Virus record (IMG/VR): IMGVR_UViG_2703718827_000009 | Location: 1-4,771 of that record | DNA: 4,771 nucleotides | Source: a virus | Taxonomy: Duplodnaviria > Heunggongvirae > Uroviricota > Caudoviricetes | Reading direction: 5' to 3' (one strand) | The notes under the pieces: generated by a model | What the model was told of the DNA's origin: nothing | Databases searched by the model: none | What the model saw: the letters and a program-made list of their open reading frames with translations, nothing else | Program-made: the position numbers and the translations under genes | Part shown: positions 1 to 4,771 of the stretch, piece after piece | Numbering within the stretch: position 1 is the first letter of the stretch | How the letters are laid out: every line of letters starts with the position of its first letter

Positions 1-318
1 TCACACCATCCTGTCGTCTTCGATCGCACTGTTGATGAAGTACGTCACCCTTCCCAACACCTCGACCTCTTCCGCTGCCTCACCTTCTATCGCTTCGCCA
101 TCATCCGTGATTAATGCCCTTCCCCTGAGTTTCGCAAATTGTGTTCGACCGCCGGACAAGATCAATAGCACCTGCCCCTGCACTAACCGGGTAACCGGTT
201 CGATAACCGCAAACCCGGAAGACGTTTCCAGGATGCGGGTATCAATGCCCACACCACAGATGAGTTCCGGTGTCATCCGCTGAGACACGTAATCAGCAGC
301 CGGTGAAGGAAAGCCCAT
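1..318 (-). CDS. UmuD'-like (HumD-like) S24/LexA-family beta-barrel protein; N-terminus in window at 318, 3' end beyond the window edge
   Basis: The product begins M-GFPSPAADYVSQR, matching from memory the segment of E. coli UmuD that follows its RecA-mediated cleavage site (GFPSPAADYVEQR). Later segments (GQVLLILSGGRTQFAKLRGR; EVEVLGRVTYFI) align loosely with the UmuD C-terminal strands. An in-frame stop lies 17 codons upstream (372..370), so no N-terminal arm is encoded. Start ATG 318..316 has a strong SD GGGAGGG 7 nt upstream and overlaps the stop of the upstream ORF (TGATG). Confidence 0.6.
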   Translation of the reverse strand: MGFPSPAADYVSQRMTPELICGVGIDTRILETSSGFAVIEPVTRLVQGQVLLILSGGRTQFAKLRGRALITDDGEAIEGEAAEEVEVLGRVTYFINSAIEDDRMV

Positions 319-557
319 CAGTGAACCCTCCCCATGTTGCGCAGGATCCAGTAGTGATTGTCGGTTCCGTCAGTTGTCTTGTCGGTAAAATCTGGCTGGT
401 AGTACTTTATCCACTCGTTGGCGTCGGCCCGGGTGAAATGCCAGTGGACCTTTGCCAGCTCGCGGATAAAGTCTTCTGTGCGTAAGCACCGGTAGCCCTT
501 GGAGTTTAGCTGTATTGCGGCCACAAATGCGCTGTGAATGTCTGATTGGCGGGGCAT
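318..557 (-). CDS. Small hypothetical protein (79 aa from ATG at 557; the reading frame stays open up to 644), first gene of a putative SOS-regulated pair
   Basis: Open frame 644..318 in the ORF track. The internal ATG at 557 is preferred because the LexA box (572..591) would otherwise lie inside the coding sequence; an AAGAG purine tract sits about 8 nt upstream of it. Its stop is translationally coupled to the downstream UmuD'-like gene. I recognise no family for the product (MPRQSDIHSAFVAAIQLNSKGYRCLRTEDFIRELAKVHWHF...). Confidence 0.45.
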   Translation of the reverse strand: MPRQSDIHSAFVAAIQLNSKGYRCLRTEDFIRELAKVHWHFTRADANEWIKYYQPDFTDKTTDGTDNHYWILRNMGRVH

Positions 558-571
558 GATCTGCACTCTTT

Positions 572-591
572 TACTGTTTTTATATACAGTA
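572..591. promoter_or_regulatory. LexA (SOS) box, TACTGTTTTTATATACAGTA
   Basis: Palindromic CTGT-N8-ACAG with an AT-rich spacer, matching the gammaproteobacterial consensus TACTG(TA)5CAGTA at about 17-18 of 20 positions. It lies 15 nt upstream of the minus-strand ATG at 557 and about 7 nt upstream of a strong plus-strand SD (598..604), in a divergent intergenic region. Confidence 0.7.
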
Positions 592-615
592 GTTTTAAAG
601 GAGGTGCAGATCAAG

Positions 616-696
616 ATGGCTAGGCCTATCAATGGAGCAACCATGAGATTTAGCAGTTTGCGACCGCCGCTCCTCCCTCAAGCGAAACCACCGTGA
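616..696 (+). CDS. Candidate 26-aa small ORF (MARPINGATMRFSSLRPPLLPQAKPP) behind a near-perfect Shine-Dalgarno sequence; speculative
   Basis: AAGGAGGTG at 598..606 is a near-perfect anti-SD complement, followed after an 11-nt spacer by ATG 616 and an open frame to TGA 694..696. It sits directly downstream of the LexA box and upstream of, on the same strand as, the glycosyltransferase gene. The peptide is basic and Pro-rich with no recognisable family; it may equally be a chance ORF. Confidence 0.2.
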   Translation: MARPINGATMRFSSLRPPLLPQAKPP

Positions 697-702
697 TATA
701 TT
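694..702 (+). promoter_or_regulatory. Possible extended -10 element (TGaTATATT) for the glycosyltransferase gene
   Basis: TG at 694..695, one spacer base, then hexamer TATATT at 697..702 (5 of 6 matches to TATAAT). No good -35 is visible. It lies about 30 nt upstream of ATG 732, which has SD AAGGA at 720..724. Confidence 0.3.
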
Positions 703-731
703 TACGCCACACACACTATAAGGATCTTAAG

Positions 732-1913
732 ATGAAAGTTGCTGTTTTGATGATGCAAAAGGATGAGTACCGGCTTCTTGAGCCATGGATACTGCATCAT
801 GCTGAGCTTTTTGGCCTTGAAAATTTATACGTCTACGATAACGGGTCAGCAGATGAGCGATGCCTTAACATTCTTAAGGAATATTCGGGAAAAGGGATGA
901 ATGTCGTTTATGACAGAAGCACCTTTGATGATTTCAATACCAGACATATCTACTTCGTAGACAAATACGAAGAATTAAAGAATTATCATGGCTATGATTT
1001 TATGATGCCACTTGATTGTGATGAGTTTGTCGGCGTTGAATTTTCAAAGGGTAAGGTGTCGCTGTCTAAAAATGACGTGTTGAATGAATTATCAAAATAT
1101 ATAGAAACCGACGCCACATTTAAAATTAAATATACATATGGCAACCACCCGCTTAACCCCAAAGAATTTGCGTTAAGCCCTAAACCTGAGAAAGTGTTCT
1201 TCCCTAAATCAAGAATCACTGCGCTGGGTAATGGCTTCCATCGCGGTGAGGTTGAGTCAGGCCATCAAGTTGATACCGATATCATTTACCTTCATTTCCA
1301 TCATAAAAAATATGATGACTATATCGCCAGCGCCCGTAATAAACTGGAAGGTCTTGTTGACGTCAATGATATTGAGGCTCTGAAGGCATTCAAAGGGGCG
1401 GGACATCATTTAGTCAAAAAGTTCCTGATGACTCAGACTGAATATTACGATATGCATGCAGCTTCGAAATCTATCAACCCGTCTAAGTTCTTTATTATGG
1501 ATGGAGTTTATGAATACCTGAAGGGTATGGGGCTGAATCTGGAGCAAGCATTAACGGTTGAGCACGATGAAAGTAGAATAACGTGGCATGGTTACGTAGA
1601 CAGGGTAAGAGAAGAGGAAGCGTCATGCGTTTTCACAGGGTGGTGCGTGCCCACTGAGGGCGTTGAGCAGCAGTTCTTTAACTTACGCATAGGACAGGAG
1701 ATCCTGCCCGGTTTTCTGGAGGAAAAAATTCAGCGCTCAGATGTTGTAGCGAAGTTCCCAGATTACAATCTGGACTGCGGATATTTAGTGAGATTCTACG
1801 GATTAACCAAAGGTGCATTGCAGCGTAACGAGTGGGAATTTCATGTTACTGCCGGATGTAAAGGCACTGGTTCAAAACTCAACAGAAGGAAAACAGAGTC
1901 ATACTTCCAATAA
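732..1913 (+). CDS. GT-A fold glycosyltransferase (family-2-like, resembling the Glyco_tranf_2_4 type), 393 aa, with a C-terminal domain of unknown function
   Basis: The N-terminus MKVAVLMMQKDEYRLLEPWILHHAELFGLENLYVYDNGSADE follows the E-W..HH...G....Y.YDNGS.D pattern of GT-A enzymes, and a DxD-type motif PLDCDEF lies about 90 aa in. ATG 732 has a good SD (AAGGA, 7-nt spacer); the GTG at 693 listed in the ORF track has none. Stop TAA 1911..1913 is followed immediately by a strong terminator. No obvious transmembrane segment. The gene is visibly more AT-rich than its flanks. Confidence 0.65.
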   Translation: MKVAVLMMQKDEYRLLEPWILHHAELFGLENLYVYDNGSADERCLNILKEYSGKGMNVVYDRSTFDDFNTRHIYFVDKYEELKNYHGYDFMMPLDCDEFVGVEFSKGKVSLSKNDVLNELSKYIETDATFKIKYTYGNHPLNPKEFALSPKPEKVFFPKSRITALGNGFHRGEVESGHQVDTDIIYLHFHHKKYDDYIASARNKLEGLVDVNDIEALKAFKGAGHHLVKKFLMTQTEYYDMHAASKSINPSKFFIMDGVYEYLKGMGLNLEQALTVEHDESRITWHGYVDRVREEEASCVFTGWCVPTEGVEQQFFNLRIGQEILPGFLEEKIQRSDVVAKFPDYNLDCGYLVRFYGLTKGALQRNEWEFHVTAGCKGTGSKLNRRKTESYFQ

Positions 1914-1916
1914 AAT

Positions 1917-1940
1917 AAGGCGGGAAATCCCGCCTTTTTT
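1917..1940. terminator. Bidirectional rho-independent terminator between convergent transcription units
   Basis: GGCGGG (1919..1924) pairs with CCCGCC (1929..1934) around loop AAAT, followed by TTTTTT (1935..1940) on the plus strand. On the minus strand the same hairpin is followed by a U-rich tract (TTATTTTATT). It sits 3 nt after the glycosyltransferase stop and about 40 nt after the stop of the minus-strand 80-aa ORF. Confidence 0.75.
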
Positions 1941-1975
1941 ACCTTCCCATGCCTTAGAATTGCCATTATTTTCAG

Positions 1976-2218
1976 CTAGCAATCAATTGTCGCATAAGGA
2001 AGTTCTGTCTTCGCATGTTTATAGCACTGCTCGAAGATATTAGGACCAGCGAGGTCATAATCGCATTCCATTGTTTGACGGTCTATCTGTGCTTTTTCGC
2101 CGGTTATTGGATGGTCAATATACTGAATGAGATCGTATTGTGCACGGTACTTTCCGTGCACTCTTGGCAGTTCAACGCGAATATAAACAGATCCTTCATT
2201 ATCATTCGTCAGTGCCAT
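1976..2218 (-). CDS. Hypothetical small acidic protein, 80 aa; last gene of the tailspike operon
   Basis: ATG 2218..2216 is preceded by SD GAGGT with a 5-nt spacer; stop TAG at 1978..1976. The start overlaps the preceding small ORF by 17 nt. The product (MALTNDNEGSVYIRVELPRVHGKYRAQYDLIQYIDHPITGEKAQIDRQTMECDYDLAGPNIFEQCYKHAKTELPYATIDC) has balanced composition with no signal peptide or transmembrane segment, and I recognise no family. The antisense plus-strand ORF (2015..2245) has a low-complexity hydrophobic product and looks spurious. Confidence 0.5.
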   Translation of the reverse strand: MALTNDNEGSVYIRVELPRVHGKYRAQYDLIQYIDHPITGEKAQIDRQTMECDYDLAGPNIFEQCYKHAKTELPYATIDC

Positions 2219-2363
2219 TCTTTACCTCGTGAAGAGATTCGATAGGGCTATCTAATTCTGCCTGCAATGCATTCATTGAAGCATTAAAAGCAGGAACTTC
2301 ATGACCGCTAAGATTTACGCGAAGCATAAACTGCATGATATTCTGAATAGTTTGCTTATCCAT
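2202..2363 (-). CDS. Hypothetical small acidic protein, 53 aa, immediately downstream of the tailspike gene
   Basis: This ORF is not in the supplied track (too short); I translated it by hand as MDKQTIQNIMQFMLRVNLSGHEVPAFNASMNALQAELDSPIESLHEVKNGTDE. ATG 2363..2361 is preceded by SD CAGGAC with a 6-7-nt spacer, only 12 nt after the tailspike stop. Stop TGA at 2204..2202 lies inside the start of the next ORF (17-nt overlap), suggesting translational coupling. Confidence 0.45.
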   Translation of the reverse strand: MDKQTIQNIMQFMLRVNLSGHEVPAFNASMNALQAELDSPIESLHEVKNGTDE

Positions 2364-2375
2364 TTTATTGTCCTG

Positions 2376-3878
2376 TTAAGTTAAACCAATTAATCCATGC
2401 CCGGTTGAAGCATGTAAGTCCTGAATTAATGCTGCAACTACCTTTGCTAAATCTTCGTGAGTTATTGTACCAGAATTAAACGCAGCTCTGGAAGTTGTAC
2501 CAGTTGGAGAACCCCATCCAGTTTTCCTCCCAGAAAGAATTTGATTGCCATTAACTCTAACATTCAGGTTGTTAAAGTTAGCCCAGTTCTCCGTCCTGTT
2601 AAGGCTCAAGTATGTCGTATTTGCAGGGCCTGTTCCTACGACAATTCTTTGATTGTCACCCAGCAAAATTGCGCAGTTATTACTGAACCCAGATTCAGTT
2701 AGAGAAATACCCACTCGGAAATTTCCATTTCTGAATCGTATACCATTTGCAGCGTTTGATAAAATAGATCCTTCAAGGCGCACATACTCGCCATTACCAA
2801 CTACAGTAGGTGCCTCTGTTGGCGGTACAATTGAATCGCCCCTGAATAGCAAACCAGTCCATATATACCCGTTAGGCGCAGCCGAGCCTCTTCCGACGTT
2901 AATCATGTGGGTTACACGGTTACTGCCATCGGTAGTGGTACAGACCAGACCTCGCGTATTTCCTTCCAGCTCAGCGCCTACCATCCAACCCTTATCTATG
3001 CTGCATCCATTATTGAGGTTGAATTCATGAACAATTACTGATTTGGCCCCTGTATTTGCTCCTCCAGTGCCTGCATCTCCTGATACTGCGCCGTACGACC
3101 ACCCGCCCCAAGCTTCGGCATTAGCATGGCGAGCCTCCCCCCTGAAATGAGCACCAACTAATTGCCCCGTCCCTCCTTCATGCCTTGCAGCAAAGGTTGC
3201 GGCAGCGCCATAAGCTGAACCACCTTGCTTTTCAAGATAACCGTAAAAGCACCCCTGTTCCCAACGCGAGACACCATCATCACGAGTTGCATTGGACTTT
3301 TTTTCTATCCATTGAACTGGATCTGGCGTGTCTGTAAGGGGTACTGAATATCGTTGCCGCATGGCATTCGAATATTGGATTGTGTTGTTATTGTAGATGT
3401 TTACACCAGCAACATCAGACCCCGTCCAGCCGCCTCCACCATAAAGATCGTCAAGCCCTTTCCCGTCTTTACCTGCAAATAAAGACCTCAAAGAGGCATC
3501 CCCAACACTTACCCATGCTCCGAGCCCAATTCCACCAGTGGAAATAGGAGTAGAGCCAGCTGGAACTACTTTACCGCCAGGAGGAAGCGCACCATCCCAT
3601 CGATAATATTCACCAGTGCTTGTATCTCGTAAAACCTGATTATATAACTCAATAGTTGCGCCAGATTGAAAAGAATCTAATGTTATATATCCAAATGAGG
3701 AAATAGCAGAAGCAGCCATTTCCTCAATTCCATACCACGTCTTACGCTTCCTTCCAAAGCGGTCCTGCCAGAAGGTAGAGTTTAAGTCATTTATTGCAGA
3801 GTCAAAGTTTTGTGAGTTGTCATATAGATCGCGCGGGTCTACTGAGCCCGGCGGATTATTAGTGGCGTATTTGGTCAT
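2376..3878 (-). CDS. Phage tailspike / receptor-binding protein with a predicted parallel beta-helix (polysaccharide depolymerase-like) body, about 500 aa
   Basis: Long minus-strand ORF (track 2376..3893). The central and C-terminal parts are Gly/Asn/Thr/Ser-rich with short repeats of alternating hydrophobic residues and Asn/Gly turns (e.g. NGIRFRNGNFRVGISLTESGFSNNCAILLGDNQRIVVGTG; NLNVRVNGNQILSG), typical of tailspike beta-helices. It sits directly downstream of a large tail structural gene. Start ATG 3878 is preferred (SD GGAG, 5-nt spacer) over ATG 3893, which directly abuts a T-run with no SD. The specific family was not identified from memory. Confidence 0.6.
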   Translation of the reverse strand: MTKYATNNPPGSVDPRDLYDNSQNFDSAINDLNSTFWQDRFGRKRKTWYGIEEMAASAISSFGYITLDSFQSGATIELYNQVLRDTSTGEYYRWDGALPPGGKVVPAGSTPISTGGIGLGAWVSVGDASLRSLFAGKDGKGLDDLYGGGGWTGSDVAGVNIYNNNTIQYSNAMRQRYSVPLTDTPDPVQWIEKKSNATRDDGVSRWEQGCFYGYLEKQGGSAYGAAATFAARHEGGTGQLVGAHFRGEARHANAEAWGGWSYGAVSGDAGTGGANTGAKSVIVHEFNLNNGCSIDKGWMVGAELEGNTRGLVCTTTDGSNRVTHMINVGRGSAAPNGYIWTGLLFRGDSIVPPTEAPTVVGNGEYVRLEGSILSNAANGIRFRNGNFRVGISLTESGFSNNCAILLGDNQRIVVGTGPANTTYLSLNRTENWANFNNLNVRVNGNQILSGRKTGWGSPTGTTSRAAFNSGTITHEDLAKVVAALIQDLHASTGHGLIGLT

Positions 3879-3893
3879 GCTCGCTCCGGGCAT

Positions 3894-3914
3894 AAAAAAC
3901 CCGCCGTAGCGGGT
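3894..3914 (-). terminator. Hairpin plus T-run (intrinsic terminator or attenuator-like) between the upstream tail gene and the tailspike gene
   Basis: On the minus strand, ACCCGC-TACG-GCGGGT (6-bp GC-rich stem, 4-nt loop; 3914..3899) is followed by five or six T. It lies 20 nt after the stop of the upstream gene (3937..3935) and directly before the tailspike start region. Probably partial or read through by antiterminated late transcription. Confidence 0.45.
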
Positions 3915-3934
3915 CAGATAGTTTTGATTTGCTG

Positions 3935-4771
3935 TTAAGCGGCGTCACCGGGGTATGTGGCGTCGTCATAGGCATACTTTCCTGGGTGGTACTGGATGGC
4001 TGTTACCTGACTGATCCCGTCATTGCCTGGGGATATTTCCCCCACCAGTGCGTCATACGGCACACGGACAGACGAGCAGAACAGCAGGCGCGGCGGCTCA
4101 ATGTACGCATCGTTCATTGCCCATAATTCCGGCTCCAGCGCGGCGCTGTACGGCACCGAGATCGTGAAGTCGTCAATGCGAGTCGGCACCACCATGGCTG
4201 ATGCCCTGCCGTCCTGATGGCGGATAATTACGCGCGGGTTTTCAAACGACCAGTCCGGGGACTCACTGAGCGTCATAGTGATTTTGCTGCTGTCATATGT
4301 CATATCGGTAATCAGGCAACTCAGCGTCTGGCTGCCGGGGATGTCATCGGCCAGCACAATGCGATCCATGAACTCATAACAGAGCGCATCCATCTCTGTT
4401 GATGTGGTGTGCTGCAGGCGCTGAAGCTGGTAGCCCAGCAACCGGCGCATGCCGATGCGGTAAGCGCGGTCCTCGTCCAGAACGCCATCCAGCGTGTAGC
4501 TCTCGATTTTCACCGGCGTAGGGTTGCCAGGCAGGCGACACTGCACGGTCTCCTCTGCCCAGGTGGTACCGTTGATATACGTCACGTCCACGCCATCGTA
4601 ATCGTCCTGAGACGGGGCCTTAAACGCGGTCTGCAACTCCTCGGTGGTTTCCTGCGGGGTGATCATGCCTACCCAGGGTTTAATCCCTTCCCGGCCAGCA
4701 GACGCCAGCCCGTCAGACAGCAGGAAATACCCCATCCCCGCGTTGGTGATTTTCTGCAGCACCTCAAGTGC
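3935..4771 (-). CDS. C-terminal ~275 aa of a large phage tail structural protein (possibly central tail fibre or tail-tip, host-specificity type); 5' end beyond the window
   Basis: The minus-strand frame is open from the window edge (reads ...ALEVLQKITNAG...) to stop TAA 3937..3935. GC-rich with enteric-like codon usage (frequent CTG, GCG, CGC). It sits immediately upstream of the tailspike gene. I could not match it confidently to lambda J from memory, so the identity is inferred from position only. Confidence 0.5.
   Translation of the reverse strand, partial: ALEVLQKITNAGMGYFLLSDGLASAGREGIKPWVGMITPQETTEELQTAFKAPSQDDYDGVDVTYINGTTWAEETVQCRLPGNPTPVKIESYTLDGVLDEDRAYRIGMRRLLGYQLQRLQHTTSTEMDALCYEFMDRIVLADDIPGSQTLSCLITDMTYDSSKITMTLSESPDWSFENPRVIIRHQDGRASAMVVPTRIDDFTISVPYSAALEPELWAMNDAYIEPPRLLFCSSVRVPYDALVGEISPGNDGISQVTAIQYHPGKYAYDDATYPGDAA

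Follow-up and report, generated by a model that had tools for sequence, protein, structure and literature searches.

A shortened, HumD-like UmuD′ homologue and its predicted winged-helix partner in LexA-box modules of enterobacterial prophages

To our knowledge, HumD of phage P1 is the only pre-activated phage homologue of UmuD′ that has been characterized. It belongs to a group of naturally pre-processed UmuD′ homologues (P1 HumD, N15 gp26, those of phiKO2 and HK639, and HK140_028; NF051876) which start with M-GFPSPAxDYVE without a pro-peptide, have the S24 fold, end in DDxP[VI][IL], and are encoded behind a LexA-box promoter with no adjacent umuC. According to the record annotation of P1 HumD, and to McLenigan et al. 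(1999) as reported in a citing paper, HumD substitutes for UmuD′ together with host UmuC. Here we describe a smaller relative that shares these features. It is encoded in a 4,771-nucleotide (nt) stretch of Caudoviricetes DNA (IMG/VR record IMGVR_UViG_2703718827_000009, positions 1 to 4,771), hereafter the window, by an open reading frame (ORF) of 105 amino acids (aa) at 1..318 on the minus strand. The protein is a UmuD′ homologue over its full length, and phage HumD is a closer relative of it than cellular UmuD. It represents a family of mini-UmuD′ proteins, HumD-derived pseudo-peptidases.

The family differs from HumD in length (105 aa versus 129 aa). An 11-residue deletion has removed the loop that carries the catalytic Ser60 of UmuD, about 11 more residues are deleted before the last strand, Lys97 is unconserved and an extra motif, ITxDGEAIEGEALDD, is present. 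The HumD-like gene of HK140 sits in a module identical to that of the shorter family, comprising dinI, a LexA box, a 79-aa gene and the phage attachment site (attP). In contrast to cellular and plasmid UmuD/UmuD′ proteins (MucA, RumA, ImpA), the family has neither residues 1-24 with the cleavage site nor a Ser-Lys dyad, a Pfam match or an adjacent umuC, and it does have the HumD-type tail. Non-catalytic S24-like contact domains are also known, for example the C-terminal domain of the phage 186 CI repressor. Unlike that domain, the window protein has no attached DNA-binding domain, carries a UmuD′ arm and groups in sequence with UmuD and HumD, apart from repressors. In Gram-positive PolY mutasomes, accessory subunits with different globular parts, such as YqjX and YolD, share the arm only (PMC12926913); the idea in common is that the arm which inserts into the Y-family polymerase is the conserved, defining element, whereas the globular part may shrink or be exchanged. 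Their arm sequence is unrelated and they belong to another bacterial lineage, the likeness drawn here being one of concept. Finally, the Gifsy dinI-gfoA/gftA, 186 tum and impC-impA-impB operons resemble the window module as small SOS operons outside the immunity region with a small first gene and an association with dinI. The window module differs from them in its 79-aa winged-helix protein, the lack of a match to DinI or antirepressor families, and a self-cleaving phage repressor.

A shortened and non-catalytic UmuD′ homologue

The 105-aa ORF runs from an ATG at 318..316 to a TGA at 3..1 and encodes the protein MGFPSPAADYVSQRMTPELICGVGIDTRILETSSGFAVIEPVTRLVQGQVLLILSGGRTQFAKLRGRALITDDGEAIEGEAAEEVEVLGRVTYFINSAIEDDRMV. 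The initial annotation of this DNA had recognized the ORF at 1..318 on the minus strand and its N-terminus MGFPSPAADYV, but had taken the gene to run off the window. With the TGA at 3..1 the protein is complete within the window, and only the DNA downstream of it is out of view. Residues 2-17 align with UmuD 25-40, so that the match opens precisely at Cys24/Gly25, the cleavage site, as had been proposed; the Met-Gly start corresponds to UmuD Gly25, and no N-terminal pro-segment with a Cys/Ala-Gly self-cleavage site is encoded. The previously noticed in-frame stop upstream is separated from the ATG by 17 sense codons that offer no alternative start, and a longer precursor is therefore impossible. 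The same annotation had described the protein as having no N-terminal arm. This is correct for the 24-residue pro-segment, but the UmuD′ arm proper is there: GFPSPAADYVS (codons 2-12, 283..315, minus strand) matches UmuD 25-40 and HumD 1-19 and is near-invariant in the family, where its consensus, GFPSPAxDYxE, is the most conserved part.

Homology beyond the arm emerged from profile comparisons. Searches with the single sequence matched the first ~19 residues only (phmmer against the PDB, NCBIfam): phmmer aligned residues 2-17, and the UmuD model NF007621 scored 15.4 bits over residues 2-15 only, below its cut-off of 110. A Pfam scan of the single sequence gave no match, and Peptidase S24 (PF00717) was touched by one of 25 family members (E 0.013). 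When the family profile was compared by hhalign, it matched UmuD with 97.9% probability (residues 2-96 to UmuD 25-136) and P1 HumD with 98.7%, in the latter case from end to end (1-106 to 1-129) at 31% identity, which upholds the earlier proposal of a naturally pre-processed, non-cleaving HumD-like protein. An hmmsearch of the family against the PDB retrieved UmuD (E 3.3e-10) and arm-less UmuD′ (1ay9, E 0.0025), and the family has the C-terminal beta-fold of LexA, UmuD and CI. A Foldseek search of BFVD gave weak matches to repressor S24 domains only. The danger that the N-terminal match might be a short coincidental motif in an unrelated fold had been acknowledged from the outset and is excluded by the full-length homology; a borrowed N-terminal motif was likewise rejected by the profile and fold tests and by bridging sequences such as P0241.

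The family is large and maintained by selection. We found 1065 homologues at E ≤ 0.01 in a 90%-clustered database and 190 representatives in a 50%-clustered library, nearly all of ~105 aa, with hosts in at least 14 enterobacterial genera including E. coli, Klebsiella, Enterobacter, Salmonella and Leclercia. Strong purifying selection is indicated by a median ratio of non-synonymous to synonymous substitutions (dN/dS) of 0.08 for the 105-aa ORF and of 0.20 for the 79-aa ORF preceding it. A megablast search of positions 1-700 against phage genomes gave no match. PHROGs and the RefSeq entry for phage mEp390 already list the family as ‘UmuD-like protein’; phrog_3469 of that name matches over its full length (E 4.5e-45, residues 1-103 to profile positions 1-103 of 106). 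In the literature that was searched, we found no description of the reduced architecture, the LexA-box promoter, the winged-helix partner or the function of the family.

Three members are chimeric. In P0149 a UmuD-type pro-peptide (…FSDSMQC|GFTSPAADYVE) is joined to the mini domain, in P0162 the 79-aa and mini-UmuD′ proteins are fused in frame, and in P0183 the beginning of the 79-aa protein is fused to the mini-UmuD′ domain. These sequences are suggestive of recombination via the conserved stretch that codes for the arm, unless they are artefacts of assembly or frameshifts.

The catalytic site of UmuD has been dismantled. By hhalign and in alignments, the deletion covers UmuD 57-67 (‘SGDSMIDGGIS’) including Ser60, which bears out the initial annotation, where the Ser motif had appeared shortened or absent; the Lys-containing strand it believed to be retained, ‘FAKL’ with K63, does align with ‘VKKL’ (Lys97) of UmuD in the window copy, but just 13 of 30 diverse members of the family have a lysine there. 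Among these 30 members no serine is conserved outside the arm, and the Ser60-Lys97 dyad is thus absent. With the Ser60 loop deleted and Lys97 unconserved, the family is one of pseudo-peptidases; loss of the catalytic residues excludes peptidase activity and makes RecA-mediated activation unnecessary. The full-length HumD-type proteins N15 gp26 and HK140_028 also lack Ser60 (‘GATHY’), so that decay of the catalytic site had evidently begun before the shortening. What is near-invariant in the family is M-G-F-P-S-P-A-x-D-Y-x-E together with G35, G48, D73-G74, V87 and G89 and the family-specific ITxDGEAIEGEALDD motif; the choice of full-length members favored carriers of the motif, and the unfiltered list is alike apart from a few degenerate or fused exceptions. 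Besides the LexA-box promoter and the lack of an adjacent umuC, the family shares with HumD the M-GFPSPA start at the N-terminus of UmuD′ and a C-terminal extension ending in DDxP[VI][IL] (DDxPVI in HumD) that is absent from UmuD. Most members end in P[VI][IM], and the window copy has the variant tail …EDDRMV.

Control region, winged-helix partner and prophage position

The gene upstream of the 105-aa ORF encodes a predicted winged-helix protein of 79 aa (318..557, minus strand; ATG 557..555, TGA 320..318; phrog_3893). A LexA box, TACTGTATATAAAAACAGTA, lies at 572..591 on the minus strand, 14 nt upstream of this start codon, and agrees with the consensus (CTGT-N8-ACAG, TACTGTATATATATACAGTA) at 18 of 20 positions. 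It is the only match in the window, with 0 expected in 200 shuffles. The box overlaps a putative sigma-70 promoter at 586..614 (minus strand), composed of a -35 element TTGATC (614..609), a 17-nt spacer and a -10-like TACTGT (591..586) which forms the left half of the box, an arrangement typical of the SOS regulon. A generic promoter scan of positions 1-800 flagged nothing, and the promoter call rests on conservation across loci. Judged by this arrangement, the 79-aa and 105-aa genes are predicted to be co-transcribed from a putative promoter that is overlapped by a near-consensus LexA box.

We surveyed 230 related viral-contig loci from three sub-branches, collected by three single-protein scans; as the searches were pattern-seeded, close relatives are over-represented in the following counts. 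CTGT-N8-ACAG was present upstream at a fixed distance in 220 of the 230 loci, and the whole layout TTGAYN-N16-18-TACTGT-N8-ACAG in 188. Members of two sub-branches have it in front of the 79-aa ORF, ~275-281 nt from the ATG of the UmuD′-like gene. In the third sub-branch the 79-aa ORF is missing from about 50 of 75 loci, where the box stands 38 nt before the UmuD′-like gene. As the box is kept with or without the 79-aa ORF, predicted SOS control of the UmuD′-like gene is the constant feature. The same layout was found in mEp390 (box TACTGTATATGCATACAGTC), in HK140 and in L070, a viral contig discussed below. Full-length HumD-type genes share this promoter and box in HK140 and N15, and the record of P1 humD has an annotated LexA site. 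The loci with the box at 38 nt and no 79-aa partner form a P0139-like sub-branch (L085 3963..4324 and ~50 similar loci) and lie in a nin-like early region, between replication genes and the RusA, Q and lysis genes, and not at the prophage end.

The two genes of the window are closely joined. The stop codon of the 79-aa ORF overlaps the start of the 105-aa ORF by 1 nt (TGATG), an arrangement for translational coupling, and the Shine-Dalgarno sequence of the 105-aa ORF as read from the sequence, GGGGAGGG (326..333, minus strand), is embedded in the C-terminal codons N-M-G-R-V of the 79-aa ORF, whose residues NMGR are conserved in alignments. The predicted fold of the 79-aa protein is an H-b-H-H-b-b winged helix. 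A DinI- or ImpC-type identity was rejected, as there is no DinI match and the winged helix is not the DinI fold. Family searches matched the protein to no known antirepressor family. When loci were collected with the partner as seed, a UmuD′-type gene lay directly downstream in 74 of 79 (69 mini forms, three proteins of 129 aa and two with a variant arm), so that the winged-helix gene is essentially never found without one.

Database names for the 79-aa protein are misleading. PGAP and UniRef call it ‘DNA polymerase V’ in some genomes (window 318..557; L002 5318..5557), a name that neither its sequence nor its predicted fold supports and that appears to reflect guilt by association with the neighboring gene. 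In mEp390 (L003, NC_019721) the ORF at 3762..4001 is unannotated, its place being taken by a 42-aa ‘gp25’ annotated on the other strand (3795..3923). The latter is probably a mis-annotation because the ORF is conserved in HK140 (HK140_027) and in hundreds of prophages.

In the closest E. coli genomes, which are 91% identical over the whole window, the family gene is the last gene of a ~45-kilobase lambdoid prophage that lies between yciB and yciA. About 135 base pairs separate the stop codon of the family gene from the beginning of host yciB; the next gene beyond position 1, where the initial annotation had proposed to look for a Y-family polymerase, is thus a host gene. No umuC is annotated anywhere in this prophage, and the module is not a Pol V-type operon with an adjacent Y-family polymerase gene. 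In mEp390 the 79-aa/UmuD′-like pair lies between a divergent dinI and attP, and in HK140 the order is dinI, box, 79-aa gene, 129-aa HumD-like gene and attP. The annotated attP of HK140 (L245 2857..3003) overlaps the last 30 nt of the HumD-like gene, and several IMG/VR contigs have their predicted prophage boundary precisely at the family gene's stop codon. The attachment site may therefore abut or overlap the family gene. A PADLOC search gave no defense-system match.

Two loci link the family to umuC. The contig L070 encodes a 107-aa family member whose gene is joined by translational coupling (TGATG) to a umuC that is 84% identical to the E. coli gene. This umuC could be prophage-borne or could result from integration or recombination at a host umuDC locus. 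An SRAP/YedK-like gene follows it on the other strand (L070 3724..6256), and an association of UmuC with SRAP has been noted before (PMC12926913). In L276, a Buttiauxella metagenome-assembled genome, a 33-aa remnant of the UmuC C-terminus (…QMKKELLSPRYTT…, 6326..6420) stands directly after a family gene that is itself interrupted by a stop or frameshift. This remnant is the scar of a deleted umuC. Together the two loci point to an ancestral order 79-aa gene-umuD′-umuC, or to recombination with the umuDC genes of the host, the polymerase gene having been lost afterwards.

Possible roles in SOS mutagenesis

In the structural model of DNA polymerase V (Pol V), the arm of one UmuD′ inserts between the palm and the little finger of UmuC beside the active site, and the UmuC C-terminus docks on UmuD′ residues S36, E69, T71 and K73. 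UmuD′ without its arm still dimerizes but is dead for mutagenesis (PMC11791011). After conversion of the numbering (+24) the docking residues are UmuD S60, E93, T95 and K97, the former catalytic cleft. Most probably the invariant arm of mini-UmuD′ engages host UmuC, whether to activate Pol V or to block it; the near-invariance of the arm, the coupled umuC of L070 and the umuC scar of L276 lend indirect support to a role as accessory subunit or modulator. We tentatively favor a positive, HumD-like role, by analogy, in which mini-UmuD′ would engage host UmuC as a Pol V accessory subunit. We consider this possible though far from assured; our preference rests on the precedent of HumD and on the umuC to which the L070 gene is coupled. 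In such a scheme DNA damage would lead to LexA cleavage and switch on the 79-aa/mini-UmuD′ pair, and the mini-UmuD′ arm would insert into host (or plasmid) UmuC as modeled for the arm of UmuD′. A ready-made accessory subunit would thereby be supplied in the manner of P1 HumD, without the delay of UmuD processing, and the gain would be translesion replication of the induced phage and of host DNA. The winged-helix partner could be a DNA-targeting or assembly factor.

A number of observations weigh against an accessory subunit. The match to the HumD equivalog NF051876 reached 28.4 bits against a cut-off of 120 and covered residues 1-19 only. The ITxDGEAIEGEALDD motif is a conserved, family-specific part of the globular domain without counterpart in UmuD or HumD, which suggests an altered protein surface. 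The Ser60 loop and Lys97 belong to the residues on which the UmuC tail docks, and by that model UmuD′2-UmuC assembly may be impaired. UmuC was detected by tblastn at one of ~240 viral loci (L070) and, the 33-aa scar aside, at none of 28 genome loci, which are species representatives from ~14 genera. The umuC of L070 has an in-frame stop after 281 codons. Lastly, no functional study was found in the literature on the family, mEp390 or the phage ‘UmuD-like protein’, a body of literature that did not include the primary paper on HumD.

The deletion removes the very cleft that is modeled to hold the UmuC tail, which makes a decoy or negative modulator of Pol V a serious rival, even if we think it rather unlikely. 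The arm might plug the UmuC cleft, or the domain might form heterodimers with host UmuD or UmuD′. The complex would be inactive since the docking cleft for the UmuC C-terminus is gone, and SOS mutagenesis or the UmuD2C replication checkpoint would be damped during induction. Deletion of the Ser60 loop and variability of Lys97, both modeled to bind the UmuC C-terminus, fit such a role, as do the new conserved acidic surface motif and the absence of umuC from the prophages themselves; moreover, the divergent gene that shares the control region in mEp390 and HK140 encodes DinI, which also damps the processing of UmuD. However, HumD, the closest characterized relative, acts positively, and the L070 gene is translationally coupled to umuC as expected of a subunit gene. 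N15 and HK140 HumD-type proteins lack Ser60 as well, so catalytic loss need not end accessory function. The pair as a whole might instead be an anti-mutasome or anti-checkpoint device in which the arm enters UmuC while the cleft-less domain and the winged-helix partner lock Pol V or redirect it to phage DNA. We regard this as unlikely; if true, it would be a new class of phage translesion-synthesis regulator built from a pseudo-peptidase.

Other explanations look beyond the polymerase. The S24 fold is common to three proteins that dock on RecA*, namely LexA, CI and UmuD, and 8gmt and 8s7g are among the PDB matches of the family. An uncleavable S24-like domain might therefore occupy the RecA* groove and tune the timing of SOS or prophage induction in the way of DinI, in line with its SOS control and the co-located dinI of some phages. 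Such a role is quite unlikely, as the best-conserved part of the protein is the UmuD′-specific arm, which is absent from LexA and CI and dispensable for docking on RecA*, and the relic linkage to umuC points to the polymerase and not to RecA. Small LexA-controlled operons outside the immunity region, such as the Gifsy dinI-antirepressor operons and 186 tum (PMC3121763), raise the idea of an SOS-triggered induction or antirepressor module. One or both of its proteins, the winged-helix one and the S24-like one with its resemblance to CI C-terminal domains, would then inactivate a phage repressor, for example through mixed CI oligomers. Yet the closest prophage has a standard self-cleaving repressor (230 aa, CI-type, helix-turn-helix plus Peptidase_S24, E 2.5e-18), not one that depends on an antirepressor, and with a CI of this kind an antirepressor is not needed. 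The module also occurs in phages with different immunity regions and in plasmid-prophage N15-type relatives, and conservation of the arm would be left unexplained; we therefore rate an antirepressor as very unlikely. That the gene is no more than the decaying remains of a captured umuD′C operon, without function, might be suspected from the loss of the catalytic residues and of umuC, of which rare relatives keep a scar or a stop-containing copy, and from fused or frameshifted database members. This is effectively refuted by selection and conservation: the family has more than 1000 homologues of nearly uniform length under a dN/dS of 0.08, and the invariant arm, the promoter, the LexA box and translational coupling are conserved across ~14 genera.

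These proteins are of interest since pre-activated phage UmuD′ homologues can alter the mutation rate of lysogens under DNA-damaging antibiotics. Should the pair turn out to stimulate or inhibit Pol V, common prophages would modulate both SOS mutagenesis and the evolution of resistance. The family further shows how far UmuD′ can be stripped, with pro-peptide, catalytic loop and conserved lysine gone and the arm invariant, and thus represents a natural experiment on the parts of UmuD′ needed to engage UmuC. It bears on structural models that place the arm at the polymerase active site and the UmuC tail in the old catalytic cleft. The survey also brought the linked winged-helix partner to light.

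Other genes of the window

Between the SOS module and a tail spike gene lies a family-2 glycosyltransferase gene (693..1913, plus strand; Glyco_tranf_2_4, E 4e-9). Its guanine-plus-cytosine content is 0.36-0.45, compared with 0.50-0.58 in the flanks, and related E. coli prophages lack this slot or fill it differently. The gene looks like a moron, possibly for O-antigen modification. Two small overlapping ORFs downstream of the spike (1976..2218, 80 aa, and 2202..2363, 53 aa; minus strand) are hypothetical in E. coli E3 and gave no informative family match; they may be spike chaperone or assembly genes. The spike itself (2376..3893, minus strand) has a TSP1/gp66 N-terminal domain and adjoins the C-terminal part of a TipJ host-specificity protein that runs off the window (3935..4762, minus strand). 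In related prophages the spike is swapped for an SGNH/GDSL esterase or other tail-fiber genes with conserved flanks, and the region behaves as a receptor-binding cassette.

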